55,844 nt of DNA from a virus. Lineage: Duplodnaviria > Caudoviricetes. The stretch is from the IMG/VR virus record IMGVR_UViG_3300012231_000001, positions 1 to 55,844 of that record; one strand, given 5' to 3'. This document shows, piece by piece, positions 10,836-40,005 of the stretch. The notes under the pieces are model-generated. The model saw only the letters and a program-made list of their open reading frames with translations, did no database searches and had not been told where the DNA came from. The translations under genes were made by a program, and so were the position numbers. Position 1 is the first letter of the stretch. Each line of letters opens with the position of its first letter.

Positions 10836-13800
10836 ATGCCTGATAATTTTTTCGCAGATAGACCAAAACGATTTAATCCTAAAACGGATGTACCATTTCC
10901 ATTTACACCGGCATTGGCTACATTTCCAGGAGATATGCAAGATATTCAGGAAACTACAGAGTTTCTGAAATATTATAAAACACCACAAGACATAGAACAA
11001 TATAAGAACTTTATAATACATTCTCAATTTGGAGAAGTTGGTGTTGAATCGCCATTCAAAGAAACAGAAACTGGTAAAGCAGAATTTGATACTACTGCCA
11101 CATATTTACCATCTAAGGGAGATGAAACCCCAGAGCAGCGTACATTCAAAGAATTAAGAAATTATTTGGTGTTGAATAAAGGTAAAGTCGAACAGCCTAA
11201 TTTTATAATGAGAGCTGCTGGTAACTCAATGACATCTGGATGGGTAGAATTGCTTACTGGTGATAAATTAGGTGGTATATATAATCAATTCGATGTTACG
11301 GAAGATGGCATATTTTTAGGTAATAAAAAATTAAATCTTAATGATGTCCAATCTAAAATACTTTCTGATTTTATGGCACGTGTTAACGGACAAGATATTG
11401 ACAGGTCATTTTTTGATAAAGTAATTGAGACAGCAGCATCATTAACATTTGATTTACCATTACTTGCTTTAACTGGTGGTATATCCAGTGGGATAATGAA
11501 GGGTTCTCAGGTTACTCGTGCTTTAATGACTTCTACTGATTTAGCACCAAGATTTCTTGGACAGATATTACAACAAAGTGTTAACTTTAATTTATTAGGT
11601 GTTCCACAAACAGTAAATGCTTTAGAACAAAAAGGTGTTGGTGGAGCATTAAAATCTATATTCCATAGTGCGTTGATGGGCACATTAGCAGCAGGAACTG
11701 GTACTGCTGGTGTTGGTATCGGTAGAGGTGTTGGTAAATTGTTCCTTACTAAAAATCCTGCTATACGTGAAGAATTAGCTGGCTTAGGTGGTTCATTTGG
11801 TTTTGGTTATTTATCTGGTAAGTTTATGGGTGATAGTGATGAAGATGCAATAGCGACAGGTTTAGGATTTGCAGCTACTCATTTTACTAATCCACGTGCT
11901 TACTCTCGTGTAATACAGGAACAGAGAACTAAACCATTACGGATTGTCACTGATAAAGGTGAGTTTATCAATGGTCGTTTTAGCCCAGATTATTTTATTG
12001 AAGAAAAAGGTACATTACAGCAGATAGATAAACGAGCGTTTATGGAAGAAGGTAAACTTGTACCGATAGATGTTGAGCCATTACAGATTACACCAGAAAT
12101 TAAAGAAGGTATGGTTTATTATAACGAACTGCCCAATTATCAGAGATTATCTTATGGTGATGCTCTTAAACGTGACAGAGAACAACAGAATGGCAAGAAA
12201 CTATATGATAATATTGTTAAAGGTTTAGATGAAAATATTGTTAAAGAATATGGCAGTCGCTTAAGAACATTAGCAGAAGTAGTATCTTCTATTGTGGTTG
12301 GTGATAAGATACGCAAAACATTTGGTTCGTGGAAATTACCTGATGATATAGAATTACGTAAAGACCTTATAAGTATAACCAATAAAAATAAAATACCATA
12401 TGATGCTTTTAAGGAATGGTTAATAAATGACATCAAGGATTATATTATAGACCCAGTTAAGTACCAAGAAAGTTTAGAAACATATCAAAGATATGTGCCA
12501 ATATCTATTGCCCAGAAAATGGCATATAATCCGAAGATATTAAAAGATATGATTGGAGTGCTTGATAAATTACGTAACACTATTATGCCAAGTGAGAATC
12601 TTACAGATTATAATAATAGATTATTACCAGAATTTACATCTGACAAAATACGTTTACCTAATGGTATTATGTATGCTAAATCTAAACCAGCGATAAAAGA
12701 AGAAATCAAATCAGAGGCACTTAAAGTTGGTGATACGGTTAAATTTGAATCTGCCGGTCAAGAACAAAGTGGTAAAATTAAGAACTTCACAGATGAATAT
12801 AAAAACGTAGATGTGGAATTAGCTGATAAAAGAACAGTTAATATACCTGTTAATAAATTATTAGAAGCTAAAGATATCAAAGAAGAAAAGGTAGAGACAC
12901 CAGTTGAGAAGGTAGAAACAGAGAAAGTTGTAGAAGAACCAACCATAGAGACTAAAGTAGAAGAACCTGCTATAAAGTCTCTTGTAGAGGACGTAAAACC
13001 CGATAAAGAAGAAATTGAGGAAAATAAAAAAGTCGAAGATTTACCCGAAACGTCAAAACAAATTGAACCTACAAAGCCTATTAAAGAAATTTCTCAAGAG
13101 AGAATCAACACTACTTCACGAGAAATCGTTGAAGCCATTTCTAAGCGTAAAGGTAAAGGTTTTGATGTTAAGCAGGAAGAAATCGCTAAACCGTTAGCAG
13201 AGTTATATGAACTTGCACAAAGACAAGCAGATGCTAAGAATATTGAGTTAGAGAAAGCCCCTGATAATCTAACTAAGACAGGGAAGTTAAAAGAAAATAA
13301 GAAATACACTGCCGAAGATTATCTTATTAAAGCATTAGCTACTGGTGATGCTCGTTTGACATCTAATGAAATTGCTGTTATATTACAACAAATTAATCCA
13401 GATAAATATAGTGGTTACACTGGTAAAAATGTTGATGATGTGTTTAAGAGTGGTAAGTTAAAAGATGTACCAAGATACAGGGGTGTAAGTATTTTACCAG
13501 AGGTTAAACCTGAGATACCTATTGAATCAGAAGAAATTAAACAGGATATTTTAGAACAAACTCAAGGAACTGGTTTAGCTGTTAATGTCCCAGAAGCTGG
13601 CGGTACACGTGCGGAGATGATAGCAACAGAAAAAGCACGTGGTCAACTTAATAAAGAACTTGAAATTGAAGAATCTGTTACAAAGTTTACAGAGTGGGCA
13701 TTACCACGACAAGGTGAAGGTAAAACTGTCAAAGAGTTATTAGATGAAGCAGTTGAAGCAGGTATTATAAATAAAGCTGGTAGAGATTATGTCGCTGGTA

Positions 13801-16800
13801 TATATGGTAAAAATGTAGTTAATAAATATAGTATAACTGATGCTAATGCTGTCCGCACTAATATTAAAAGACGAACAGAAGTACAAAAAGTTATTGATGA
13901 ATTTAACACTACATTTGGGCAAGAATATGGGATAACAGCAAAGATAGAACTTATACCACAGGTAGCAACGGAAGGGCAACTTAAAGCAGCAAATATAGAG
14001 GGTGGGTTCAATATAGAAGGAGTCACTCGTATATCTTTGATAGACCCATCCAAAGATATAGAAATAGCTATTGACCCACGTTATGGCAAAACAAGAACTT
14101 TTGAGCACGAAAAATTCCACGGATTAAGTGAGTTGATATTAGATAAAAACACATATTATAATTTATTGAAGAAACGTGGATGGGATGGAGCTGGTGATAA
14201 GTATAATAAAAATGTAAGCAGAATCAGAGCAGAAGAATTAATAGCTGATGCTTATGCTGACTGGAGAGCAGGCACTGGACCACAATTAAGTGGATTTAAG
14301 AAGTTAAAAGCATTCTTTGAAAAGATGATGAATTTCTTTAAGGGTAATGAGTTTTTGACAAATGAATATGCTTTCTTCAGAGATTTAGCAAATGGTAAAA
14401 TACAACTGCGAAAACGTATTCATTCAAATGTTAAAAAATATTATGACCCTAAAACTGATAAAATGTCTATTGAAGATGTGCAAGAATTATTTTCTATCGC
14501 AGCAGCCCCATCACCAAAGGATACATATGTTCAAAAAGAAGCATTATACGAATGGGATAGGACAAGACCTGATAGATTAAACCCAGATAGAATGCTTGAT
14601 AAGATGTTAAAGTCAACATTATATTCAGATATACCAACTGCTGCGAAAGATAAGATTCGTGAGTTATGGCAATTAACTACTCCGCCAGCATATGCTAAAT
14701 ATAAGATGCCTAAGTTTGCTGATATTCGTGAGACTGGTGAAAATTGGATTATACGTAAAGCTGTTGAAGCAGGTAATCGTATCTGGAGAGAGAACTGGTT
14801 AATAAAAGAACAGGGCAAATCATTTTTCCGTAATCTTCCACAAGAAACACAAGAAGGATTAATGGGGAAATACCAGAAATATACTGAAGATATGTATGAA
14901 AGTAAAGGTGAGCCACTTACTGCTGATAAGTTATATAAAGAATATAAATTTACAGAACAAGAAATTAAAGTTGATAAAGCATATCAAGCTACTAAAGATA
15001 AAACTGTTGAGGTTCGTAAACTTGCTAATAAATATATTTTACAGAACTTCAAGAACGTTACAGAGTCATTAAACAAACGAAAGTTCACAGAATTTTTCCC
15101 AGAACTAAAAGATGACATAGCGAAAGGCGAAGAAATATCTAAAGAAACATATGGCAAAGCTAATGACATACTTGAAGCTGAACCAATGAGGAAAGAACAG
15201 GTTGTTGATTATTTGTCTGAAAAGATGTATGATTATGGTGATGCTCATTATCTTAATCTTGTTAGACCATCTACTCCTGATACTTGGATTATAGATATGG
15301 CTAATGCAGATGGTAAGCGTAGAAATATGTATGCGATAAATGAAAAAGATGCAAAGGCTAAAGTCGAAGAATGGCGTAGTAAAGGTTATGAAGTGACAGA
15401 ACAAGGTTTTTATAGGATAGGTGACATATTAAAACAAGGTGAATATTGGAATCGTTTGACAGCCAGACAGTTACAAAACTTAGCAGCATTGGGGCATATT
15501 CCTCTTGATAATCCGATTATCGCTAAATTGGAAGAATCATTAAAAGCAGGTACGTTTGAGCAGCATACTACCGAACGAGAATTTATACCTGGTATGGAAT
15601 TTACTTCGAGAGAATTAGAAGAAAATCTGGAACGATTTGTCCACGAAGGTTCAGGTTTATATCGTATGATTGGTAATATGGAAATGACACGTTCTATGGA
15701 AAGTTGGTTACAAGATTTGAATGTGTTAAATAAAAGTACAATGACACCTATTAGTGATGAATTAAGGAATAAATATGATATTAAAGGTAGTAGCCCGACA
15801 GATAGTGAACTAAAAAAATTACAATCTGAATATGATTATGCTACTAAGTATGTTAATAATATCACACATTCAGATAAGTCTATCGCTGATGGTATTAGGA
15901 AATATACTTATGCTTATTATCTTGCTATGAGAGCATCATTTATGTTCCAACAGCCATTCCAAGTATTTCAAAAGGTATTGCCTGTTGCAATGGCAGAGAG
16001 CAAAAATGGTAATAAGACATTTTGGAGCACATTAACAGAATCAGCTAAAGTAATGCAATTTATTCGTGCCAACCAAAAAGGACTTAGTGAGCAGGAAATT
16101 AGTAGTTTCGGGTATGGCAAAGAATTATATGATATATATAATACTTTAACTTATATGAAGAAGATGGGTAAGACTGGCGTTGAAGAACTTTCTGACCAGA
16201 TGGGTGAAATAGATTATCATTATGCGACTGGGCCAGGGAAGTGGTTAGAGTCTGCAATTAGAATGCTTAATATACCATCTGCTGGGTTAGAGAAGTTTAC
16301 TCGTGTTCAGTCTATGCTAACATTCTATAATATAGGTAAAGAAAAAGGATTGGCTGGTGAAAAATTAACTAATTATGTTGCAGACAAAATAGATGAAACA
16401 ATGGACCAGTGGGGTGTCGGTGGTAGAATACCATTGCTTGCGAGTAAGAAACCTCATACAAGACAAGAACCATTATTAAAAGCATTGGATAAATCGTTTA
16501 TTACATTTAAGACTTACGCAACACATAATCTTGCTTTATATGAGAAGTTAATGCGTAATCATCAATGGGGAGCATTAGGAGTTAAATTATTAGTGGGATT
16601 AGGTTTGCACGGTGCTACTAAATTCCCATTAATGGCAGGTATGTTTATGCTTGCTGATTTATTTACTGAAAACGATACAGAACACGAAGCATTACAGATG
16701 TTAGATGATTTGAATGGTATAGTACCAGGTCTTGGCAGTATTACAAGTCGTGGTGTATTTTCATTAGCAGATTTAGATGTTAGCAGGTTATTTGATGAAA

Positions 16801-17405
16801 GAACCATATTCCCGACTGATTTAGTTTCTAACTTAAAGTCATATTCTACAGAAGGTAAACTTGCAGAAGCAATGATAAGTGCACCTTATGGGTTTGTAAA
16901 AGATATAGTTGATGGTTCTCAGGGATTATATGAAGGATTAAAAACAGCAGTGTTAAATGAAGCTACAACAGATGTAGAGAGACGGCAAATTAAGAAAAAT
17001 CTTGTTAAAGTATTGCCATTATTTTTAAGAAATGTAGCTACTGTCGTTTATCAATGGGAGAAAGATGGTATAATGGTTAGAAATAATGTTATAGTTAAAA
17101 AAGAAGATTTAACTTGGAAAGATGTTTTATATAAGACATTAAGTTTCCAACCATTAGATGTGTCTAAAGCTGTAGAAAGGCAGATATATGGTTTGCCTAA
17201 TAAACTTAACAGAATAGAGGGAGAAATAAGTGAACTTAAAAAGATAAGAAAAGAAATAGCATCATCTACTGAATATGAAGCTATTGAAAAGACATTACAA
17301 TTACATAAGGTAGCTGAAATGTTAAGAGATGCTCAAGAACGTAAGATTAAGATGATGCGTACTAAGGAATATAAAGAAGCAGTTTCGACAGGTTTGTTAA
17401 ATTAG
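10836..17405 (+). CDS. Giant internal virion/ejection protein with a zincin-like metallopeptidase motif
   Basis: 2189 aa; Gly-rich hydrophobic N-region; KOW/SH3-like LKVGDTVKF; E/K/P linker; HEKFH...EELIAD motif near 14100-14250. Confidence 0.65.
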   Translation: MPDNFFADRPKRFNPKTDVPFPFTPALATFPGDMQDIQETTEFLKYYKTPQDIEQYKNFIIHSQFGEVGVESPFKETETGKAEFDTTATYLPSKGDETPEQRTFKELRNYLVLNKGKVEQPNFIMRAAGNSMTSGWVELLTGDKLGGIYNQFDVTEDGIFLGNKKLNLNDVQSKILSDFMARVNGQDIDRSFFDKVIETAASLTFDLPLLALTGGISSGIMKGSQVTRALMTSTDLAPRFLGQILQQSVNFNLLGVPQTVNALEQKGVGGALKSIFHSALMGTLAAGTGTAGVGIGRGVGKLFLTKNPAIREELAGLGGSFGFGYLSGKFMGDSDEDAIATGLGFAATHFTNPRAYSRVIQEQRTKPLRIVTDKGEFINGRFSPDYFIEEKGTLQQIDKRAFMEEGKLVPIDVEPLQITPEIKEGMVYYNELPNYQRLSYGDALKRDREQQNGKKLYDNIVKGLDENIVKEYGSRLRTLAEVVSSIVVGDKIRKTFGSWKLPDDIELRKDLISITNKNKIPYDAFKEWLINDIKDYIIDPVKYQESLETYQRYVPISIAQKMAYNPKILKDMIGVLDKLRNTIMPSENLTDYNNRLLPEFTSDKIRLPNGIMYAKSKPAIKEEIKSEALKVGDTVKFESAGQEQSGKIKNFTDEYKNVDVELADKRTVNIPVNKLLEAKDIKEEKVETPVEKVETEKVVEEPTIETKVEEPAIKSLVEDVKPDKEEIEENKKVEDLPETSKQIEPTKPIKEISQERINTTSREIVEAISKRKGKGFDVKQEEIAKPLAELYELAQRQADAKNIELEKAPDNLTKTGKLKENKKYTAEDYLIKALATGDARLTSNEIAVILQQINPDKYSGYTGKNVDDVFKSGKLKDVPRYRGVSILPEVKPEIPIESEEIKQDILEQTQGTGLAVNVPEAGGTRAEMIATEKARGQLNKELEIEESVTKFTEWALPRQGEGKTVKELLDEAVEAGIINKAGRDYVAGIYGKNVVNKYSITDANAVRTNIKRRTEVQKVIDEFNTTFGQEYGITAKIELIPQVATEGQLKAANIEGGFNIEGVTRISLIDPSKDIEIAIDPRYGKTRTFEHEKFHGLSELILDKNTYYNLLKKRGWDGAGDKYNKNVSRIRAEELIADAYADWRAGTGPQLSGFKKLKAFFEKMMNFFKGNEFLTNEYAFFRDLANGKIQLRKRIHSNVKKYYDPKTDKMSIEDVQELFSIAAAPSPKDTYVQKEALYEWDRTRPDRLNPDRMLDKMLKSTLYSDIPTAAKDKIRELWQLTTPPAYAKYKMPKFADIRETGENWIIRKAVEAGNRIWRENWLIKEQGKSFFRNLPQETQEGLMGKYQKYTEDMYESKGEPLTADKLYKEYKFTEQEIKVDKAYQATKDKTVEVRKLANKYILQNFKNVTESLNKRKFTEFFPELKDDIAKGEEISKETYGKANDILEAEPMRKEQVVDYLSEKMYDYGDAHYLNLVRPSTPDTWIIDMANADGKRRNMYAINEKDAKAKVEEWRSKGYEVTEQGFYRIGDILKQGEYWNRLTARQLQNLAALGHIPLDNPIIAKLEESLKAGTFEQHTTEREFIPGMEFTSRELEENLERFVHEGSGLYRMIGNMEMTRSMESWLQDLNVLNKSTMTPISDELRNKYDIKGSSPTDSELKKLQSEYDYATKYVNNITHSDKSIADGIRKYTYAYYLAMRASFMFQQPFQVFQKVLPVAMAESKNGNKTFWSTLTESAKVMQFIRANQKGLSEQEISSFGYGKELYDIYNTLTYMKKMGKTGVEELSDQMGEIDYHYATGPGKWLESAIRMLNIPSAGLEKFTRVQSMLTFYNIGKEKGLAGEKLTNYVADKIDETMDQWGVGGRIPLLASKKPHTRQEPLLKALDKSFITFKTYATHNLALYEKLMRNHQWGALGVKLLVGLGLHGATKFPLMAGMFMLADLFTENDTEHEALQMLDDLNGIVPGLGSITSRGVFSLADLDVSRLFDERTIFPTDLVSNLKSYSTEGKLAEAMISAPYGFVKDIVDGSQGLYEGLKTAVLNEATTDVERRQIKKNLVKVLPLFLRNVATVVYQWEKDGIMVRNNVIVKKEDLTWKDVLYKTLSFQPLDVSKAVERQIYGLPNKLNRIEGEISELKKIRKEIASSTEYEAIEKTLQLHKVAEMLRDAQERKIKMMRTKEYKEAVSTGLLN

Positions 17406-17840: not shown

Positions 17841-20800
17841 ATGAAATATGTAATATTATTTATTTGTTTATTTATTACTACTGGACTTACTCAACCAGAT
17901 GAACATTATTTAAGGAATAAACAACTTCACATCTATGACCCAGTTTATCTCGGTTCTACACCTTCTGAAGATTTAGTAATATTTTCAGGTGCATATACTC
18001 AGACAAAAACAGAGAATGATTCTCTTGGAAGCAGCAGGAAACCTGCGAGATATATGGTATGGAGTTATGGGACAGTAGTGGGTGAAAAAATCTACAGTCA
18101 GATAAACAGAAATTTTGAAGTTGATGTGTTATATGAAAGTAATTTTAGTGTTGACGCTGATGGATGGGCTGTTGTAGAGGGTGGGACTTTAGCTGGTAAT
18201 ATTGATGGTATAAATGGTGTGAATGATGTTTTAAGATTTACAAGTGATGCGACTACACTTTACCATCGTTTTAATAAAACAGTATTATCCGGACACGCAA
18301 GTGGCGATCCTGTACAGTTGGAAATAAAAGGATATATCCCTACTGCTAATACTTCACTATATCAGTTACAAACTTGGGTTTCTATGACTGCGTTTGCACA
18401 TAATTCTTTTTTTGAAAACAGTAATTGGATTACAAGTAAGGAGAGAACTAATATCTGGCAGGCTTTACCACCTTTAATGCAAGGAAGAAACATTTCCAAT
18501 CAAAGCACATTCCCTGGTACAGCAGGTGATGTTGCATATATAAAAGATGTGAAGATTTCTTTATTCCCTAATTACACTAATGCCGGCAATCATTTATTTG
18601 ATTCTTCATCTACATTCAAACACGCAGGAACATATTCAGGCAGAATTGTTTCAACTGCGGCTGGAAGTTCCGCATCTAACCATATAAGATTCAGGTATTA
18701 TGGTGGAGCAGTAGGGTTTGTAGCCCCTCAGTTTATTGCATTTACTGCAGCTGAAATGGATTCAATTCATTTTTATGCGAAAGTACCATATTCAAATAAC
18801 GATACATTGTTTGTCAGTATAGGAACGCAGACGAAGGCTTTCAGTTTTTCCTCAACAAATTTTGAAGAAAAATTATGGCTCTTTACGCCAACCGTTAATG
18901 AACTTACAAGTGATATAAAATTTTATTTGAATAAAGCAGACACAGTTTATATAGATGATATGAGTATTGTTGGTACAGCAACTTTAGATTCTATCTCTGG
19001 CATTTCTAAGATATTACAAAATCCTATTGAAGATGCGTTATACAGAGCACGTCAGACAGTTTCATATACTTCAAAGGCTGGATATTTTTATTGGAAAACA
19101 ACTGCTTGGGATACTGTTTATACTTTAATAAATGCACCTGTAATAGAGCAGATAACAAGCGGCATTGATAGTGCAATTATTGTATGGCAAGATAATTCTG
19201 GTCAGGAAGTAAGACAGATTGTCCAAAGGAATACTGATGGAGGAGAAAGCTGGAATAATATTGATACTGTTGGTACAGATATACAACAATATGCTGATGT
19301 TACAATCACAGAGGGAGTAACTTATTATTACCGAATACGATGTGAAGGTAAGTATGCTGCTGTATCAGATAATTCAATAGCATATTCAGATGTATTTGCT
19401 TTTGAAACAGGAGATAAAACTTATGATTTAGTTTTTATCCCTTCCTCATTAGATTATGGTACGTTGGATTCGTTAGCAGCTCCAGGAGAAACGGCATCTG
19501 AACTTGTTGGTGATGCTGAAACAGGAGATGAAACTCAATTTAATGTTATAGATACAGATGCAGATAATATTTTTGATGCAAGAGATTCTGCTAAGCATCA
19601 AGGAGATTATGGATTTTTAGTTGCTTCCGGAGGAACTACTGATGATGCTTTCGGGCAGCATACTTATACTGGTAATCAAGATTCATTTTTTGTGAGAGCA
19701 TACCTGTATTTACCAAGCAACTATCCTAATGTTGACCAGGGTACTTTACAATCTTATGCCTTTATAGACTGCAGAGATGCTTCGGCGAGTAATTTTCTTT
19801 TACAGTTAAGATTTAATTCTTCTACTCACTATTTATACAGATTTCTTTATCGTACTGATGCAGGATTACAAACAGGTGCTTCGATTGCAGCAAACATAAC
19901 TATAAATGCCTGGCATTATATTGAACTGAGATGGAAGGTTGGAAGCGGTACAGGAGAAGTTGAAGTGTTTTTGGATGGTGTAAGCCAGCAGAAGGTAACT
20001 GGCTTAAGTAATACTGCTGTAACCGATATAACTAATATAAGAGCAGGGCAAGTATCAGCCGTGACTCCATTATTAGGTCAATATTTTTTCTTAGATGATG
20101 TGCTTGTTGATAATGCTTACATAGGAGTATATTCATCTTCGGGCAACAGTGATTCTACGATACAGGTGATAGTGCAAAACATAGGAAATCAAGATGTAGA
20201 AATTATAGGATTAGATGACCTCAGCTCTCCATTTAGTATTGATGAAAGCGGATTACCATTTACCATTCCTATTGGCAGTGAAGATACTATAAGCATTTCA
20301 TTTAATAGAAATTCTGTTGAAGGATTTTATGACGATACATTATCTGTTGATAAAACACTTGGTACAACTCAAACATATACAATGTCGGGAACTATATTTT
20401 TCCCTGAATTACTACCCCCAACAGATTTAGCGATAACTCATAATGCTGATACAAGTGCTTTTTTAATAACCTGGACTGATTGGGCTGGTGCAGATGGATT
20501 TGATTCTGTAAGAGTTTATTCAAGTCCTGATAATATTACTTTTGTTTATGCAGCTTCTGTTGACAGCGGTGTAGAGACTTATAATGATGGTGCTGGTTAT
20601 GGAGTATTAAGATATTTCAAATTAGGTTCTGTAAGAGATGGGCAAATATCTACTCTTACAGCATCGGTTGGTTATACGATGCCGGAAGCACCGACAGAAA
20701 CTTGTTTAGAGCCGAATATTACAATTACAAATGCTGTGACTACAGATATGGATGATTTCTGTTTCTGGATTCATCCGACTGATCCGGATTTATCTTTGAT

Positions 20801-23312
20801 AATAGATTCTGATAAAGGTTCAAGCAGAATATATGTGTTTGATTTGGATAACAATTTACTTCAAACTATAAATCCCTCTGGTGTACCAGGCAATATTGAT
20901 GTAAGATATGATTTCGGATTAGCTGGTACAGGAACTGATTTTGTGGCTGTGAATAACAGAACAACTAATTTCATACTATTTTATAAAATCAATCCAACGA
21001 CAAGAACATTAAGTGCAGCAGGTTCGATTGATGCAAGTGCTGTTTTGTCGCAAAATTATGGGCTTACACTTTATCGCTCACCTTATGATACAATCTATTA
21101 TGTGTTTGTATCAGACCAGGGCGGTACAGTAGCTCAATGGGAATTGGAAGATGAAGCTGGCAGTATTGCAGCAGTTGGAGATACTCATTTAAGAACCTGG
21201 GAAATGGGTTCTATAACTGAAGGTATGGTTTGTGATGATGAAACAGGTAAGATATATGTGGCAAGAGAAGATAATTATGTCAGAGAATTTGCAGCCGAAC
21301 CTGACAGTTCAACTACTTTTCAAACTCAGTTTGCTGACGTAGGTACAAATGGAGTTGCTGCTGACCTTGAAGGTATTGCAATTTATTACTATGGATATGG
21401 AACTGGCTATATAGCTCTTTGTTCACAAGGGAATAACAGCTTTAAGTTTTTCACAAGAGAACGACCACATACATTTGTTAAAACTGTAACTGTGCCAGGT
21501 TCGTCAGATGGTGATGGATTAGATATAATCAATGTTGCGTTCCCAAGTTATTTTCCTTATGGAATATTCGGAGTGCATTCAGGTGGTGATGCACTTATAA
21601 TGACAGATTACAGTTGCTTAGAATTGAATACAAGCACAACATATTGGAATCCGAGAATTGGATACACTCCTCCACCAAGCGATTCACTGTTCAGCTTTTC
21701 AACACCTTATTCATTTGGAGTTGTTGATTCTGGTTCTGGTATTATATCAGCAACAAGAATATTGACAAACAATTCAGGAATAACTTTGAACCTTACAAGT
21801 TTAACTGGATTAAGCTCACCATTTTCAGTTGTAAACAGAAGCAAGGCGGTTGACGATGGAGACACAGTTCAGGTTGTTATCAGGTTCAATACTAATTCTG
21901 GTTTAACCGGCAGCTTTGCCGATGATTTAATTATCACCGCAGAAAAAACTCAGACGCTTCACGTGTTGGGAGATATACAAAGTCCGCCACCGCCGCCACC
22001 AGTGGGGGGCGATGAAGATGGTATAAGAGACAGATTTATTGATCCACTTGCAACCGGACTTAATAACGGTACAAGCTGGACTAATGCGTGGACAAGTACA
22101 AGCAGTGTTGTTTGGGGAAGTGATTGGGATAGTTTATTCATTTCAGGCGGTACTACTTCACAAGTTTATACTACTGCATTAAGTATAGCAGGTAATGGTA
22201 CAGCTTCTCAATATAGAGTTGTTACAAAAGGTAAATCATCAGGACACAATGGAGAAGTGATATTCAGAAGAACTTCTAATCCTACCATTTCCCCAAGCGG
22301 TACACGTTCTTATGTAAGCATTGAAAATCTTACTGTTGATGGGCAAAGTATTGTGAGTGGTTCTTTAATAGATTTTTCAGGTTCATCAGCTTCTCACCAT
22401 CATTTACAATTTAAGAATCTTAGTTTGCCTTTAATAAGAGGATATACAGGTATGCGAGTAGGTGGAAGCACAGCATCAGTTCACAACATTACAATCAGGG
22501 ATTCTTATTTCAGACAGGATTCTGCTGCCGGAGACCAGACTGATATACATTTTTTACAAAGTTGTGATTCTGTTTATATAATTAACAATACTTATGTGAG
22601 CAGAAACAATGCACCCTCTCCTCATAGTGATGGCATTCAGATGAATCGTTCAAGTGATATATGGATTGAGGGTAATAGATTTCTTCACGCAAATAATAAA
22701 GGTGAATTTAATCAAGTCTGTTATTCAACAGAAAATTCAGGAAAGATATTTGTCTTAAATAACATATTCTATTTTGCTGCACCAAGCAGTACAGCACCTG
22801 TATTTGCACCGAGCAGAGTACCATTTGCTGGGAATGATTCAGCTTATGTAATTCAAAATACTATTGTAAGCAGAACTGCTGCAGGATGTGATTGGATTTG
22901 GTATGACCAGTTACCTTTCGTAGTCCAGTATAATAATGTAGCTGTTGAAACAGGAACTAAAGCAATACTGTTGATGATGGGTTCAGGTACAACAATGGTT
23001 TCTGATTATAACCAGGTATATAAACCTGGCTTTACAACTTCTACAAATTATTTTACAAGCTGGGGTGGAGGAAGAACCTTAACTAACTGGAGAAATGTAT
23101 CTGGCTCCGACCAGCACGATGAAAACACAGTTATATCTCAGCCAACATTTACAAACTTTGATTGGGCTTTTAACCAATGGGATAATGTTTATCTGAATAC
23201 CTATGACTTTACTATCCCATCAAGATTGTCTGGTAAATCAAGCGGACTGCCGGTGATAAAATTAGGTACACATACTTTTACCCCTGATGGGTTAATAGGT
23301 TCAGACCAATGA
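17841..23312 (+). CDS. Multidomain exported or virion-surface protein: FN3/Ig-like, LamG-like, beta-propeller phytase and pectate-lyase-like beta-helix domains
   Basis: Signal peptide; FN3-like segments (YYYRIR); WHYIELRW...VFLDG lectin fold; phytase motifs at about 20700-21660; polyPro linker; NGTSWTNAW and HSDGIQ beta-helix motifs. Confidence 0.8.
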   Translation: MKYVILFICLFITTGLTQPDEHYLRNKQLHIYDPVYLGSTPSEDLVIFSGAYTQTKTENDSLGSSRKPARYMVWSYGTVVGEKIYSQINRNFEVDVLYESNFSVDADGWAVVEGGTLAGNIDGINGVNDVLRFTSDATTLYHRFNKTVLSGHASGDPVQLEIKGYIPTANTSLYQLQTWVSMTAFAHNSFFENSNWITSKERTNIWQALPPLMQGRNISNQSTFPGTAGDVAYIKDVKISLFPNYTNAGNHLFDSSSTFKHAGTYSGRIVSTAAGSSASNHIRFRYYGGAVGFVAPQFIAFTAAEMDSIHFYAKVPYSNNDTLFVSIGTQTKAFSFSSTNFEEKLWLFTPTVNELTSDIKFYLNKADTVYIDDMSIVGTATLDSISGISKILQNPIEDALYRARQTVSYTSKAGYFYWKTTAWDTVYTLINAPVIEQITSGIDSAIIVWQDNSGQEVRQIVQRNTDGGESWNNIDTVGTDIQQYADVTITEGVTYYYRIRCEGKYAAVSDNSIAYSDVFAFETGDKTYDLVFIPSSLDYGTLDSLAAPGETASELVGDAETGDETQFNVIDTDADNIFDARDSAKHQGDYGFLVASGGTTDDAFGQHTYTGNQDSFFVRAYLYLPSNYPNVDQGTLQSYAFIDCRDASASNFLLQLRFNSSTHYLYRFLYRTDAGLQTGASIAANITINAWHYIELRWKVGSGTGEVEVFLDGVSQQKVTGLSNTAVTDITNIRAGQVSAVTPLLGQYFFLDDVLVDNAYIGVYSSSGNSDSTIQVIVQNIGNQDVEIIGLDDLSSPFSIDESGLPFTIPIGSEDTISISFNRNSVEGFYDDTLSVDKTLGTTQTYTMSGTIFFPELLPPTDLAITHNADTSAFLITWTDWAGADGFDSVRVYSSPDNITFVYAASVDSGVETYNDGAGYGVLRYFKLGSVRDGQISTLTASVGYTMPEAPTETCLEPNITITNAVTTDMDDFCFWIHPTDPDLSLIIDSDKGSSRIYVFDLDNNLLQTINPSGVPGNIDVRYDFGLAGTGTDFVAVNNRTTNFILFYKINPTTRTLSAAGSIDASAVLSQNYGLTLYRSPYDTIYYVFVSDQGGTVAQWELEDEAGSIAAVGDTHLRTWEMGSITEGMVCDDETGKIYVAREDNYVREFAAEPDSSTTFQTQFADVGTNGVAADLEGIAIYYYGYGTGYIALCSQGNNSFKFFTRERPHTFVKTVTVPGSSDGDGLDIINVAFPSYFPYGIFGVHSGGDALIMTDYSCLELNTSTTYWNPRIGYTPPPSDSLFSFSTPYSFGVVDSGSGIISATRILTNNSGITLNLTSLTGLSSPFSVVNRSKAVDDGDTVQVVIRFNTNSGLTGSFADDLIITAEKTQTLHVLGDIQSPPPPPPVGGDEDGIRDRFIDPLATGLNNGTSWTNAWTSTSSVVWGSDWDSLFISGGTTSQVYTTALSIAGNGTASQYRVVTKGKSSGHNGEVIFRRTSNPTISPSGTRSYVSIENLTVDGQSIVSGSLIDFSGSSASHHHLQFKNLSLPLIRGYTGMRVGGSTASVHNITIRDSYFRQDSAAGDQTDIHFLQSCDSVYIINNTYVSRNNAPSPHSDGIQMNRSSDIWIEGNRFLHANNKGEFNQVCYSTENSGKIFVLNNIFYFAAPSSTAPVFAPSRVPFAGNDSAYVIQNTIVSRTAAGCDWIWYDQLPFVVQYNNVAVETGTKAILLMMGSGTTMVSDYNQVYKPGFTTSTNYFTSWGGGRTLTNWRNVSGSDQHDENTVISQPTFTNFDWAFNQWDNVYLNTYDFTIPSRLSGKSSGLPVIKLGTHTFTPDGLIGSDQ

Positions 23313-34721: not shown

Positions 34722-35165
34722 TTAAGCAGCAGCTTTTTCTTTCTTAGGTTGCCGAATGGGAATTGAAATTGTAACAGTCCCAAGTGGGATTAGTTTCTGA
34801 AGTTCATCTCTCCATTTGTAGCCCATATTGACTACCTCAATGTAACGAACTACATTGTCTGGGAGAACACCGATTTGTGCAGCTTTTTCGGCTGTATTAA
34901 GTGAAAATTGTTTACCAGTACCAGTAACTTTCTTACCAGCGACTTTATGAGCACCGTGAGCCTTGACGAAAGCTGTAAAATCTACTATGTCAACATCTGG
35001 GAACTCTGATGCGAACTTTTCAAGTTCACTTTCATAAACAACGAATCCTGTCTGTTGAACATTCGCATTTACCTGAGCGTCATCCATTAAACCAGCTTTG
35101 TAAGAATTATAAAATGCTCTTAAAGCTGCAAAACGAGTGGGGCGACTGCCTCTTTTCTTTGCCAT
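34722..35165 (-). CDS. Basic-ended hypothetical protein, monocistronic
   Basis: Has its own promoter (35224-35254), AAGGA RBS and terminator. Confidence 0.75.
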   Translation of the reverse strand: MAKKRGSRPTRFAALRAFYNSYKAGLMDDAQVNANVQQTGFVVYESELEKFASEFPDVDIVDFTAFVKAHGAHKVAGKKVTGTGKQFSLNTAEKAAQIGVLPDNVVRYIEVVNMGYKWRDELQKLIPLGTVTISIPIRQPKKEKAAA

Positions 35166-35270: not shown

Positions 35271-36353
35271 TTAAGATTTTTTCTGGACAGCATCTTCCTT
35301 TCTGTCATCTATCATATATGGTTCTTCATAATGGCCTATTTTTATCAGGAACTCATTCCAAGTGCCATCGTGACCATTAACGAGCACACCATCTTCTGAA
35401 ATTTCACAGTATGAATTATCTTTTAGATGCTGAATCCAATATGTACCATTAGCTACAACCATTGATACTTTATCGTGTAAATCTTTATCCAGCAAGATAG
35501 CTTTTTCTTTAACCTGTTTTATCATCTTTACTTCTTTTATAGGTGGTATATAATCTCCCATACCATATTCATTCATACCAAACCCAGAATAATCTTCAAA
35601 CATATCTAAAGTTTCTTCGGCTGTAAAACCTACATTTTTATCTGGGGAATCTTTAACATCATCCTTAAATGGTATGACAATTTCACCTTTACCATTAAAT
35701 ATTTTAAGCAGAGGATTATAATTTACATTCTTTACCCAAAACTTTCCGTTATGTGGATAAAAATTCTTACCATACCACGTTCCAGAACCATATCTTGGGT
35801 GCCATCCTTTTTTATGATTTGCCCCTTCTACAGCAGTTACTTTTTCTACCACTTCTTTTGGTTCATAGCATTTCTTTTTGACTTCATTATAAACCGCTGT
35901 ATTGTCATAATATGGGATAAGATTCACTTCCATATTAAGTGGAGTATCTAACTCAACACCACCTGCGTGTTTGTAATTAAGTTCAGCAAAATATTCGTGT
36001 TTACAGTTCACAATGATTGAAATTAAATATGGGAATAGCTTTAATGCTTTCCTAATCAATTCTTTATCAGTATTAGAAGCAAACACAGGAAAATTAACGT
36101 GACTATGCCATTGAACTACCATATCACTGATATCATAATCCTGTCTATGGATTATTTCATCGGGGAATGTATCTACTTCTGCTCCCTTCACTTCTTGTTT
36201 TAATAGTGGTGCCAGTTTGTAAATACCATCTTTCTTACTATAATGTCCCCAACCAGCTATTTCTGTACCGTGAATATGTGATGCGAAAGCAGCGTATTCA
36301 AACATTTGATACAATACTTTTGCATCTATCTGGATGTCTATTTTATCGCTCAT
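35271..36353 (-). CDS. JAB/MPN+ metallo-isopeptidase (deubiquitinase-like); probable start MSDKID
   Basis: EIAGWG plus WHSHVNFPVFASNTD equals the E...HxH-x7-S-x2-D JAMM motif; GGAG RBS; overlaps the E1 stop. Confidence 0.88.
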   Translation of the reverse strand: MSDKIDIQIDAKVLYQMFEYAAFASHIHGTEIAGWGHYSKKDGIYKLAPLLKQEVKGAEVDTFPDEIIHRQDYDISDMVVQWHSHVNFPVFASNTDKELIRKALKLFPYLISIIVNCKHEYFAELNYKHAGGVELDTPLNMEVNLIPYYDNTAVYNEVKKKCYEPKEVVEKVTAVEGANHKKGWHPRYGSGTWYGKNFYPHNGKFWVKNVNYNPLLKIFNGKGEIVIPFKDDVKDSPDKNVGFTAEETLDMFEDYSGFGMNEYGMGDYIPPIKEVKMIKQVKEKAILLDKDLHDKVSMVVANGTYWIQHLKDNSYCEISEDGVLVNGHDGTWNEFLIKIGHYEEPYMIDDRKEDAVQKKS

Positions 36354-37215
36354 CGTTATCTTCTCCGATTTCAAATGGGTTATCTTCCCCATCTTGCCTC
36401 TCTAAATTATCTGCGAAAGTTGGCATACCATCACCATCATCTGCCTCTCTTACAGCTTGTATTGGCTGTTTAGCTATTTCTTTAGGTATTATGATTCTCT
36501 CTGCTTCTGGTTTCTCTACATTTATCATTTTCATAATAGAAACTGTACCAACAATATAATCGTGGAAAGAATGTATAATGCGTACACTTTTATTCTGGAC
36601 ATATTCACGATATTTATGAATACAATCACTTACAACACCAAATGAGACATCTATAACAGCAGTGCCAGTACAAGGTAATGGTGCTGCATCTTTATTACTC
36701 CACAGATTTTTAGCATAATAATTAAATTCTTCTGATTTAGTTAATCTGCAACTGAATACATTAGCGAATGCACCACCAGTACGAGCATCAATAATAAGTT
36801 TAGTGCCTTCTTTAGCTTCATCAAATATCCATTTGCGTACGTTCATATCATCTACACAAACAAAAACAACATCGTAATACTGAACTTTAATATTTGCTGC
36901 TTCAATACGAGATGGGACAATATTAATTTTAGCTGTTGGCACTAAATATTTGATAGTTTCTTGTAATGCAACAACTTTAAGAAGTGATGGCTTATCTTGG
37001 ACAAGTTCAGCCATCAAACTTTCTGCGAAAAATTGATTCGGTAGATTATGTGCCTCTACTAAATCGTGGTCACAAATTGTAATTTCTTTTACACCCATTC
37101 GTGCTAAACCAAAGGCAAGATAACTGCCTATATGCCCACAACCAATAATTAATGGTTTCGGATGGGCTTTAGATGGGTCGAAGAAATCGAGCTGTCTCCA
37201 AACATCTGCTTTCAT
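36343..37215 (-). CDS. ThiF/E1-like Ubl-activating enzyme
   Basis: RQ, GCGHIG, DHDLVEAHNLPNQ, KV, CVDDMNVR and IDARTG motifs; candidate catalytic Cys in PLPCTG. Confidence 0.93.
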   Translation of the reverse strand: MKADVWRQLDFFDPSKAHPKPLIIGCGHIGSYLAFGLARMGVKEITICDHDLVEAHNLPNQFFAESLMAELVQDKPSLLKVVALQETIKYLVPTAKINIVPSRIEAANIKVQYYDVVFVCVDDMNVRKWIFDEAKEGTKLIIDARTGGAFANVFSCRLTKSEEFNYYAKNLWSNKDAAPLPCTGTAVIDVSFGVVSDCIHKYREYVQNKSVRIIHSFHDYIVGTVSIMKMINVEKPEAERIIIPKEIAKQPIQAVREADDGDGMPTFADNLERQDGEDNPFEIGEDNDER

Positions 37216-37229
37216 AACTATTCTCCATT

Positions 37230-38909
37230 TTATATTATTAATGAATCTCCTACAGCGTTACACTGAGGGATATTATAATTTACACAACTACTACTTGTGC
37301 AAGTGAATACTTTTGTAGCAACATCAAATTTTAAGTAATTCCCACATACATCACAAATACATTTATAAATGTATTCCCCAGCGTTATTAAATAAACGTGT
37401 ATTATTTATTTTACATCCTCTGGCAGTACAGTATAAATCATTATCCGATGTTTTGCTTAATTCTTTATTACCGCACGATGGGCAAACCCCTGGTATAAGC
37501 TCTATTGCTGCAGATTTTATTAACAATGCTTTAAGTTTTTTATCTTGTTCAATTTTTCCTGCTTCCCATTTTTTAGCAGCTTCCTCAGGGCTTATCCAGG
37601 GAGAATTGATTAAATCGAATGCACAATAAAATTGTTCATATGTTCTCCACTGGCTTAAAGTGTAACCACGACAACTTTTATCAACACAAGGATAACCAGA
37701 ACGAGTTAAACTTGGTCTGCCACAATGTCTGCAATATGGAGCTGTAACTCTATATGGATATTTAGGGCTTGCCATACATTGTTCATTATTACAAATCCAT
37801 TCAAACATTCTGGCATCTTCATCATAATCTCCGATAACACAATCTTGTTGACATTTAGAGCATTTTATATTAGCTTTTTCACAACCTTTACAACGAAGAT
37901 TAACACATCTACCTTCTTCATTAGTGATATAATCACAATGAGGGCAGAAAGAGTTACCTATGGTCTCTGCAAAATATCGTGAACTATTAATTTCTTTAGA
38001 TGAAGAATTACCATCTTTTGATAATTTAATGTCTATTAATTTATTCAGTAATCTTATTACTTCAGATATTTCTTTGACAGGTCTAAATGGAGCACCATCA
38101 TCGCCATCACCTGGATTATAAGAAAATAATGATTCTTTTAACACTTCTAATAAAAACGCATAAGAGCGTGATTCGATGTATAGCTGTACATCTGATACAC
38201 GGTTACCCCAACAGATAGAACCACCTGAACCGATATGAGGATGTAGAGAGCCTACCCTACTTATACCCCATCGAGTATCATACATAAATTTATTAAAATA
38301 ATAAATTGTATGCCTAAATGTATATTTTTCAGTCATAAACATTTGAATAGCTTTATACTGTAAATATCCTTCTATTTCATTACCACATCTTACATTCCGT
38401 ACAATGAATGAAATATCTTCACCAGCCCTGGCGACTTCTATTTTATATTTTTTACCTGCTTTGATTAAAGCATTTATATCAAATGGTTTATACCCAACCA
38501 TTTTAGAAGCAAATATTGAGAACTCCATCATTTTTGCTTCGTATGAGGTGGTATGCCTTATAATATCAAAAACATTGCTCAAATATTTTTGATAAATTGT
38601 AGCAAAACTGTTAATATCATTTTGATTACCATTAACACTAATAATATAGCAAGAACATAATAATAATATTTTATTCGTTTGTGTTGTAAATGGACAATAG
38701 AAAAAGTTTTCACTTACAAGAACACCTCCACCTGTCGGCAGTGTATAAGTTCTTATCTCTTTAGCAGTTAAAATATTTTGTTCCTGTATAGTTATAGGAA
38801 TGATTCGTGAGGAAAGTTTTAACATCTCAGACATTCGTGTATTCATCAGTATAGATGCTTCCATTGTTTCTGTCTGAGTAAACTCTAAAGGTGAAGATTG
38901 TATAATCAT
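37230..38909 (-). CDS. E2/UBC-like conjugating enzyme fused to C-terminal Zn-ribbon repeats
   Basis: HPHIGSGGSICWG at 38205-38243 matches the UBC HPN-x7-C pattern; five CxxC...Cx4C units follow. Confidence 0.75.
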   Translation of the reverse strand: MIIQSSPLEFTQTETMEASILMNTRMSEMLKLSSRIIPITIQEQNILTAKEIRTYTLPTGGGVLVSENFFYCPFTTQTNKILLLCSCYIISVNGNQNDINSFATIYQKYLSNVFDIIRHTTSYEAKMMEFSIFASKMVGYKPFDINALIKAGKKYKIEVARAGEDISFIVRNVRCGNEIEGYLQYKAIQMFMTEKYTFRHTIYYFNKFMYDTRWGISRVGSLHPHIGSGGSICWGNRVSDVQLYIESRSYAFLLEVLKESLFSYNPGDGDDGAPFRPVKEISEVIRLLNKLIDIKLSKDGNSSSKEINSSRYFAETIGNSFCPHCDYITNEEGRCVNLRCKGCEKANIKCSKCQQDCVIGDYDEDARMFEWICNNEQCMASPKYPYRVTAPYCRHCGRPSLTRSGYPCVDKSCRGYTLSQWRTYEQFYCAFDLINSPWISPEEAAKKWEAGKIEQDKKLKALLIKSAAIELIPGVCPSCGNKELSKTSDNDLYCTARGCKINNTRLFNNAGEYIYKCICDVCGNYLKFDVATKVFTCTSSSCVNYNIPQCNAVGDSLII

Positions 38910-39220
38910 TGCCAATCTCCTTCTTCGGCAGTTTGATATTCTTCACACCATTCTATTTCTTTACGAGACATCATTTGTGCCATTTTCCTTATTTTGAACA
39001 TTCGTTTTACTAACCAATGTTTACGATTAAATCTTTTACCAAACCAGCCGAACTCATCTTCCTCATTAACAGAAAATGGTTCAATTTTAATATTAAATGT
39101 ATATTTAATATACTGTAATGGTCTATAAATAGATGGTCTGAAGGCTTTACGCATAGCTTTAATATATGGATGTTTTTTTAATACATCCGTTATTATTTTA
39201 ACTTTTTCTTCTTCTGTCAT
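38906..39220 (-). CDS. Basic hypothetical protein inside the Ubl cassette
   Basis: GGAG RBS; its stop overlaps the E2 ATG (ATGA). Confidence 0.65.
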   Translation of the reverse strand: MTEEEKVKIITDVLKKHPYIKAMRKAFRPSIYRPLQYIKYTFNIKIEPFSVNEEDEFGWFGKRFNRKHWLVKRMFKIRKMAQMMSRKEIEWCEEYQTAEEGDWQ

Positions 39221-39271: not shown

Positions 39272-39547
39272 CTAAGCATTTTTGGTTTTCAAACCAACAC
39301 GGATAGTATCACCTTTATTGATGACATTATCCATTATTGCTTCAGAGCCATTGTGAGAGACTACGTAATCTTTCAGATTGAAGTCTGATATAAAACTACG
39401 TACAGTAGTACCAGCTGCAATTTTTACATCTTCCGGTACACTACCTGGTTTATGTAAACTCAAGCTAACTTGAGCTGCTACTGCTTTCTTTGTAGATTTT
39501 ACAGTAGTCTTTTTTGTGCTGGTGCGTGTGCTTTTCTTTTTAGCCAC
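39272..39547 (-). CDS. Ubiquitin-like (ThiS/MoaD beta-grasp) protein with a Lys/Thr-rich N-tail
   Basis: GGAGG RBS before GTG 39547; GTTVRSF, VSHNG and INKGDTIRV beta-grasp pattern; C-terminus KTKNA. Confidence 0.8.
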   Translation of the reverse strand: MAKKKSTRTSTKKTTVKSTKKAVAAQVSLSLHKPGSVPEDVKIAAGTTVRSFISDFNLKDYVVSHNGSEAIMDNVINKGDTIRVGLKTKNA

Positions 39548-39585
39548 AGCTTCCTCCATTATATTAGTTATAAGATGGTTGTTAA

Positions 39586-40005
39586 TTAACACCCATTTAT
39601 AGTCTGGGTTATGGACTTTATAAGTTCATTAATTTCTTCATCTGTCAGGACTACTATTTTTTCAGTTGTCCCAGACACTTTAATTTCTGATAATTTTATT
39701 ACATCATAATATTGTTGTATACGTTTAATAAACATAATTGTACCAAAATTATTTAATGGATAATAAAATCTTTTAACACCATCATCAGTAGACATATACA
39801 TTTTTTTAATATGAGAGCCTATATTCCACTTATATCTATATTTATCATATCCATTATGGTCAGACATTCTTAATGACCTTAACCTACCATCTTTGAATTT
39901 AACATAGACACTATTAGTGGTAAAGGCTTCGTGATAAACATAAGGCTCTAAATGTTTTAAGTCAGATAGAACTGTTTGTAATGTTTTCTTAATTTTATTT
40001 GTCAT
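39586..40005 (-). CDS. Hypothetical phage protein
   Basis: SVYVKF...LRMSDH motif. Confidence 0.6.
   Translation of the reverse strand: MTNKIKKTLQTVLSDLKHLEPYVYHEAFTTNSVYVKFKDGRLRSLRMSDHNGYDKYRYKWNIGSHIKKMYMSTDDGVKRFYYPLNNFGTIMFIKRIQQYYDVIKLSEIKVSGTTEKIVVLTDEEINELIKSITQTINGC

Follow-up and report, generated by a model that had tools for sequence, protein, structure and literature searches.

A putative ubiquitin-like conjugation cassette of uncultured tailed phages and the zinc-ribbon tail of its E2-like protein

Can a bacterial virus carry its own ubiquitin-like tagging kit, and can the conjugating enzyme (E2) of such a kit double as its own ligase (E3)? The question is raised by a gene in the genome of a tailed phage (Duplodnaviria; Caudoviricetes), IMG/VR record IMGVR_UViG_3300012231_000001. 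All 55,844 nucleotides (nt) of this stretch were analysed; they are called the window below. The window is a complete phage genome: the record has direct terminal repeats and a completeness rating of 100%. The gene (37230..38915, minus strand, as are all cassette genes described below) encodes 561 amino acids (aa) from a TTG start, and residue numbers throughout count from this TTG, as in an earlier note on the same DNA. That note had proposed an E2-like domain fused to five tandem zinc ribbons, possibly a built-in E3 or substrate adaptor. Judged by predicted fold, motif and gene context, the domain is very probably E2-like. Further, we lean towards the view that the gene belongs to a self-contained cassette for the conjugation of a ubiquitin-like protein (Ubl). 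The ribbons would then be a protein-binding array which chooses the target or a partner, and the E2 would be its own E3.

The E2-like domain as claimed in the earlier note is supported by the predicted fold, by the HPH...C motif and by the neighbours in the cassette. An AlphaFold2 model built on a 62-sequence alignment has a mean predicted local distance difference test score (pLDDT) of 84 and displays the canonical UBC topology. The protein would consist of three parts: an N-terminal domain peculiar to the family, the UBC core and, at the C-terminus, an array of independent zinc ribbons with four Cys each (C4). The N-terminal part, an alpha/beta domain plus a long helix (residues 1-137; 38505..38915), has a fold without assignment. 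The modelled core comprises residues 142-300 (38016..38492). A helix (147-156) is followed by four strands (160-164, 167-179, 183-194, 200-206), then by the HPH loop with Cys235 and by helices 237-248, 252-264 and 280-300, i.e., the order of elements in UBC domains. The unassigned region ahead of the E2 motif, put at about 200 aa in the earlier note, shrinks to about 140 aa, as the modelled UBC fold begins near residue 142. In the translation HPH occupies residues 225-227 (38235-38243) and the putative catalytic Cys235 is encoded by 38211-38213, which confirms the E2 motif of the earlier note.

Alignment counts here and below refer to 55 homologues in which the catalytic Cys is present and followed by at least 60 aa. 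His225, Pro226, His227, Cys235 and Gly237 are present in 55/55 of them. The family motif reads HPH-x(3-8)-C; its third residue is His, not the Asn of the His-Pro-Asn-type motif of the UBC superfamily. The wider conserved core pattern is F.NVK.GN..EGYI.YK ... LHPHI-x(2-7)-C.GNR..D...Y ... Y.P. A Foldseek search with the E2 model returned nothing at E ≤ 1e-3; the top ranks are mostly E2 enzymes, and Ube2K, UBE2O and BIRC6 are among the structural matches. When a profile of the core only (7 sequences) was run against 177,635 PDB sequences, two matches at E ≤ 10 were obtained, both to UBE2W. In an alignment of about 40 residues (E = 1) HPH falls on HPH and the invariant Cys on the active-site Cys. 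A profile of the full family matched only Cys-rich zinc-finger proteins in the PDB (E ≥ 0.0088); this result was judged compositional and discarded.

How large is the family? HMMER searches of 1.84 billion representatives identified 62 proteins at E ≤ 1e-3, of which 51 remain at E ≤ 1e-10 and 9 at E ≤ 1e-30; the window protein itself (P0001) is one of the 62. The lengths vary from 106 to 627 aa. Ten clusters of the family were looked up: none has a name beyond 'hypothetical protein', and all are on metagenomic contigs of at most 46 kb. The Atlas clusters nearest to the E2 family are 100% viral. In BFVD the structural matches (four at E ≤ 1e-3) come from uncultured tailed phages and are uncharacterised. 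Other searches were barren. No match was found by tblastn of the E2 in 50,697 phage records, a word-index search of 5.8 billion proteins returned the E2 itself alone, and phmmer against the PDB gave TiaS alone (E 0.24). P0001 has no Pfam match at E ≤ 1, and no E2 family is among the 25 commonest Pfam families matched by the 62 members. The Atlas names Prok-E2_D and UQ_con for the E2 merely as leads, at 0.77. A fused E1-E2 form does not occur among the 62 family members. On a tree of the core the window E2 groups with P0003 and P0014, with five units each, and with P0004, which has four. Four divergent, ribbon-free members of 251-319 aa (P0057, P0058, P0059 and P0061) lack the catalytic Cys, some of them also HPH. 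Judged from their sequences, these may be inactive relatives resembling ubiquitin E2 variants (UEV-like).

The gene context is that of a cassette. Eight related loci were found on viral and metagenome contigs; two of these loci (L001 and L005) share one contig, which leaves seven contigs, and L008 and L009 give identical scores. In 8/8 related loci the gene order is Ubl, E2, activating enzyme (E1), JAB peptidase. The Ubl homologue is directly upstream of E2 in all eight. In the window the Ubl open reading frame (ORF) is at 39272..39592. Its likely start is the ATG at 39559, which yields 95 aa ending in RVGLKTKNA, without Gly-Gly. The Ubls of the different loci (95-106 aa) have no family match; the best PDB match of the Ubl profile is MoaD (1vjk, E = 0.067). 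The tail GD.[VI]R[VI]G[VL].TKN[NA] is kept in 7/7 sequences (window, L001, L002, L004, L006, L007 and L009), one of which has an extra Arg. The length of the tail past the last strand equals that in the MoaD alignment. A conserved Gly is located six residues upstream of the terminus (window C-terminus at 39275-39292), and the JAB enzyme may trim the Ubl after this Gly instead of the Ubl being used as encoded. Either alternative, trimming as an obligatory step or adenylation of a terminal Asn or Ala by the E1, would be out of the ordinary. The N-terminal tail of the Ubl (39470-39559) is rich in Lys, Thr and Ser, probably disordered and, at 0-30 aa, variable in all homologues. Chains could be built on its lysines, or it could bind nucleic acids.

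The E1 gene (36343..37215) encodes a ThiF-type enzyme of 290 aa (Pfam ThiF 4.7e-23; PADLOC CBASS E1-E2 models 9.3e-16), and the ThiF/MoeB matches in NCBIfam are all under their cut-offs. The E1 sequence includes a Gly-rich loop and the motif LPC[TS]G, whose Cys182 is invariant. An extra E2-binding domain was not detected in the 290 aa with Pfam or NCBIfam. The subsequent gene (35271..36392) encodes a JAMM/JAB metallopeptidase of 373 aa. Its Pfam match to Prok-JAB (0.0039; 17.5 bits) is below the cut-off of 25, and the JAMM residues E...HxH...S...D are conserved in 7/7 sequences; the JAB gene is present in 8/8 loci. Past the peptidase domain about 220 aa follow, in which little is conserved apart from a short YIPP-like patch.

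Does this E1 fit this Ubl? The predicted complex attained an interaction prediction score from aligned errors (ipSAE) of 0.71 versus 0.12 for the best control, a mark reached by 58/80 solved complexes and 2/110 mismatched pairs; because MoeB-MoaD and ThiF-ThiS complexes have been solved, this is to be taken as likeness and not as proof of binding. The runs agree in at least 95% of the contacts and the partner pLDDT is at least 91. In the model Ubl residues 87 and 89-95 contact E1 residues 25, 27-30 (the Gly-rich loop), 119-124, 127 and 144-152. The whole Ubl tail up to residue 95 rests on the active-site loops of the E1.

From these parts the following pathway may be proposed. The E1 would adenylate the C-terminus of the Ubl, Asn-Ala or Asn-Asn instead of Gly-Gly; this step is modelled. 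The Ubl would then move via the invariant Cys182 of the E1 to Cys235 of the E2, which is located 8-10 residues past the invariant HPH, as in UBE2W. The E2 would discharge straight onto targets without an E3, and the JAMM peptidase would undo the conjugation.

Are the zinc ribbons real? The five CxxC...Cx4C units after the E2 motif are present, with positions and motifs exactly as first given. Unit 1 (C324/C327/C337/C342; 37890..37946; CPHC/CVNLRC) is modelled with pLDDT 88-97. Unit 2 (C352/C355/C375/C380; 37776..37862; CSKC/CNNEQC) has a modelled beta hairpin at 358-375 with pLDDT of about 94, and unit 3 (C395/C398/C410/C415; 37671..37733; CRHC/CVDKSC) reaches about 80-84. After a helical linker (443-464) follows unit 4 (C478/C481/C496/C501; 37413..37484; CPSC/CTARGC) and then unit 5 (C521/C524/C539/C544; 37284..37355; CDVC/CTSSSC); both are lineage-specific. 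When folded alone the tail has a mean pLDDT of 71. The last 241 residues contain 25 Cys (10.4%) versus 0.79% in the 31 ORFs of the window with at least 150 aa. Not one of 20,000 shuffles of the Cys-rich tail produced five units; the maximum was four, attained once.

The units differ in conservation. All four Cys of unit 1 align in 48/55 homologues, those of unit 2 in 41/55. The first three Cys of unit 3 are common to 38-40/55, the fourth to 9/55. All four Cys of unit 4 align in 1/55 and those of unit 5 in 3/55; unit 4 is present in the closest relative, P0003. The additional Cys residues 345, 359, 431, 519 and 552 of the window E2 are not conserved. The units have four Cys each, no conserved His and no conserved Cys past the four ligands.

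The number of ribbons varies as well. Counted as knuckles in the 53 members with a complete N-terminal part, eight have no ribbon, five have one, ten two, 17 three, five four, seven five and one has six, with the proviso that some ribbon-free representatives may be truncated metagenomic ORFs. A core tree was calculated from 52/62 sequences, with fragments and Cys-less members dropped. On its 52 tips at least 23 changes of ribbon number are required, against 31.3 on average and never fewer than 26 when the labels are shuffled. Therefore, ribbon number is inherited but labile. According to the aligned sequences the first two or three ribbons appear as a fixed possession of the family, and the distal ones appear to be gained and lost between lineages.

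In the homologues at L002 and L007 unit 1 is the sole ribbon. Because unit 1 occurs alone, the units are sequential and not cross-braced. A RING-like reading of units 1 and 2 was considered and rejected for the same reason; a cross-brace of the C3HC4 type is absent. A Pfam scan of the 62 members yielded only weak zinc-ribbon families. It is led by the NAD-ligase zinc finger PF03119 with 6/62 members at E ≤ 1 (best 2e-4), and P0001 is unmatched. The earlier description as ribbon-like rather than RING-like is thus borne out by the single-unit homologues and by these weak matches.

What do the ribbons do? That they form a protein-binding module which stands in for an E3 is, on sequence grounds, given slightly less than an even chance. 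Three observations favour protein binding. First, the E2 diverges faster than the E1; across the related loci the scores are 57-112 bits for 561 aa versus 119-207 bits for 290 aa. Second, the distal units come and go. Third, the ribbon tails are net negative in 40/46 members and positive in four, with a median charge of -9.5 and a median isoelectric point (pI) of 5.05. The earlier note saw no separate E3 in the cassette, and this holds for the window and for all eight related loci. As a pointer to a built-in E3 the absence has little force: it is real, yet nothing special, since in the Bil pathway E1 and E2 suffice for conjugation, as stated in the available part of the report (10.1101/2023.09.26.559546).

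Several points weigh against our reading. The E2 at L009 is a protein of 289 aa with no Cys after the core; the E1 gene follows at once, and full Ubl, E1 and JAB genes are present. The ribbon-less L008 and L009 thus keep full cassettes; therefore, the chemistry does not need ribbons. The tail of the window protein itself is slightly basic (+3, pI 8.8). A Ubl terminus other than Gly is unusual for E1 chemistry. The E2 has no match to an E2 model in Pfam, NCBIfam, PADLOC or PHROG, and the sequence match to UBE2W is weak (E = 1). The adaptor role would follow from architecture and variability only. Finally, the strong conservation of units 1 and 2 may point to a constant role, such as docking of E1 or Ubl or stability, instead of variable target choice.

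The last point leads to the alternative which survives best, and which we nevertheless consider unlikely: the ribbons are constant docking or scaffold modules which hold the E1, an enzyme without a ubiquitin-fold domain, or bind the Ubl non-covalently for chain building. UBA or NZF-type modules act in this manner on some eukaryotic enzymes. The retention of units 1 and 2 and of three Cys of unit 3 in most homologues agrees with such a constant role. The same is true for the pLDDT values, which in the tail are highest in units 1 and 2, and for the minimal E1, in which no additional E2-binding domain was detected. Further, the best structural matches are to Ube2K, and the alignment extends past the core up to residue 336. 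However, the ribbon-free members keep full cassettes, and a constant role leaves the freely varying distal units unexplained.

More doubtful is that the array binds DNA or RNA and recruits the E2 to the replisome, to the nucleoid or to phage DNA. The earlier note had considered nucleic-acid recognition as a function of the ribbons. This is disfavoured by the acidity of the tails, which argues against a general nucleic-acid role. Matches to the C-terminal C4 zinc ribbons of topoisomerase I and to the NAD-ligase zinc finger (PF03119) do exist; like every structural and Pfam match of the ribbons they are at noise level. Their acidity sets the tails of the phage E2s apart from these DNA-binding arrays.

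Far less probable is a sulfur carrier and adenylation system of the ThiS/MoaD-ThiF type with the 'E2' as a UBC/RWD-like scaffold devoid of catalysis. In its favour, the E1 matches ThiF and MoeB best among families, the top PDB match of the Ubl is MoaD, and four family members lack the Cys. Yet HPH...C is invariant in all 55 tailed members and an intact JAMM peptidase is always present. The Ubls end in NA, NN or NNR (7/7), without the Gly-Gly of sulfur carriers, and inspection of the cassette ORFs revealed neither a rhodanese nor a sulfurtransferase gene. Least probable of all is a RING-between-RING (RBR/IBR-like) module with its own catalytic Cys, i.e., a true fused E3: the HOIL-1 RBR region is the best non-KRAB PDB match of the Cys-biased family profile (E = 0.0094) and Parkin and HOIP RBR chains top the Foldseek list for the tail (E 0.78-3, probability 0.02-0.07), but these scores lack significance and reflect the Cys content. 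Outside the four ligands per unit neither Cys nor His is conserved, a RING1-type cross-brace is missing, and single-unit homologues exist.

We return to the E2 as a conjugating enzyme with a protein-binding tail and compare it with known systems. UBE2W shares with the phage E2 the UBC fold, HPH in place of HPN and an aligned catalytic Cys; it is without the N-terminal domain and the zinc ribbons. UBE2W prefers N-terminal amino groups. UBE2K, with its UBA domain, UBE2O and BIRC6 combine a UBC core with extra domains in a single chain, as does the phage E2, yet these domains are unrelated to zinc ribbons. UBE2O and BIRC6 are E2/E3 hybrids.

Closest in composition is BilABCD, the bacterial ISG15-like system and class 6d of Iyer, Burroughs and Aravind 2006. 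As far as the accessible portions of the two sources describe it, it shares all four activities with the phage cassette (Ubl, E2, JAB and E1) and conjugates without the need for an E3 (10.1101/2023.09.26.559546; PMC1779556). The differences are considerable. According to the same portions BilABCD is a bacterial anti-phage system, whereas the present cassette is carried by phage genomes. BilA is trimmed by the JAB to a C-terminal Gly (10.1101/2023.09.26.559546), whereas the phage Ubl as encoded ends in NA or NN. In the sections available, E2s of class 6d are described as having no canonical His upstream of the Cys and a conserved His after it (PMC1779556). The phage family has an invariant upstream HPH, and because of this difference it is not regarded as a Bil E2, again as far as those sections go. 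Zinc ribbons are not reported for Bil E2s in the parts of the sources that were covered; the phage E2 has a ribbon tail. The phage E1 is a minimal ThiF-type enzyme, unlike the Bil E1.

In the type II cyclic-oligonucleotide-based anti-phage signalling system (CBASS), Cap2 is an E1-E2 fusion which conjugates the CD-NTase, so far as the accessible accounts go; in the phages each of the two enzymes has its own gene, both in the window and in 8/8 related loci. The phage cassette further differs from type II CBASS Cap2/Cap3 by its dedicated small Ubl. A phage-encoded Ubl with a JAB protein is also known from the TAPI and TAPK tail-assembly proteins of lambda and T1 (PMC1779556). In the portion of the source consulted that pair has no E1 or E2 and belongs to a tail module, whereas the window cassette has both enzymes and is part of an early/recombination module.

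Two loci of other phages may be mentioned. In the jumbo Xanthomonas phage PhiXhv-15 (PV764602.1, 811-4690; L010) an analogous trio adjoins topoisomerase genes. It consists of a 141-aa protein with a Gly-Gly end, an 892-aa protein that has HPH...C and 36 Cys, and a ThiF-type E1, 27% identical to that of the window. The 892-aa protein was undetected by the E2 family profile at E ≤ 10 and is a candidate relative only. In Dulem virus 41 (PP511520.1, 2916-4624; L011) a ThiF-family gene directly follows a gene for a 338-aa protein with JAMM HxH...S..D in a replication module.

Where does the cassette reside in the phage genome? The window encodes a large terminase, a portal protein, a DnaB-like helicase, an Erf-type annealing protein and an exonuclease, and the E2 gene is located in the leftward early/recombination block. 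Where the contigs of the related loci reach far enough, JAB is followed by a 147-aa protein, an exonuclease, Erf and a 256-aa protein (p256). The cassette is thus part of a conserved early/recombination module in a clade of uncultured tailed phages. The 147-aa protein with basic ends (34722-35165) follows JAB in the window and at L002, L004, L006, L007 and L009. It has no match in Pfam, PHROG or NCBIfam and is a candidate partner or target of the cassette. In the rightward late region are two giant ORFs of 2189 and 1823 aa (10836-17405 and 17841-23312).

The start of the E2 gene deserves a comment. The true start is probably the ATG at 38909, two codons past the TTG, yielding 559 aa, because this ATG overlaps the upstream stop (ATGA), a GGAG is located 7 nt upstream and the database copy begins there. 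The upstream stop is that of a 104-aa ORF (38906..39220, minus strand) between the Ubl and E2 genes, whose stop is translationally coupled to the E2 start. This ORF has no homologue in the eight related loci and no match in Pfam, PADLOC or PHROG; the insertion is peculiar to the window phage.

In the literature we found neither a phage cassette of Ubl, E1, E2 and JAB nor a fusion of an E2 with zinc ribbons in a search which did not extend to subscription journals and supplements (Bil, Bub and CBASS homologue lists). Within the literature searched, a phage Ubl-tagging kit with a ribbon-tailed E2 is apparently undescribed for viruses of bacteria. Three features are unusual: an E2 family beyond curated models with a eukaryote-like HPH...C, a ribbon tail of 0 to about 6 units, and a Ubl without a terminal Gly. 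Bil and type II CBASS are host weapons against phages; here, a phage clade has a complete cassette as a fixed element of its core early region. This should be of interest to those who study bacterial ubiquitin-like pathways and the conflict of phages with their hosts.

The cassette may act in counter-defence, keep other phages out, or regulate the replication and recombination proteins of the phage. A bolder proposal, which we regard as possible though rather unlikely, is offensive tagging. The non-Gly Ubl would be put early in infection on host proteins, e.g., of defence systems or the nucleoid, or on proteins of rival phages. The distal ribbons would set the specificity and evolve with the host like a receptor-binding protein. 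If true, bacterial viruses would have their first E2/E3-hybrid tagging system, a viral mirror image of Bil. If the ribbons do select targets, the family would be a naturally occurring set of E2s with exchangeable specificity modules, and a tractable system for the study of substrate choice by E3-independent E2s. Bacterial viruses would then, like eukaryotic viruses, exploit ubiquitin-type tagging for their own ends.

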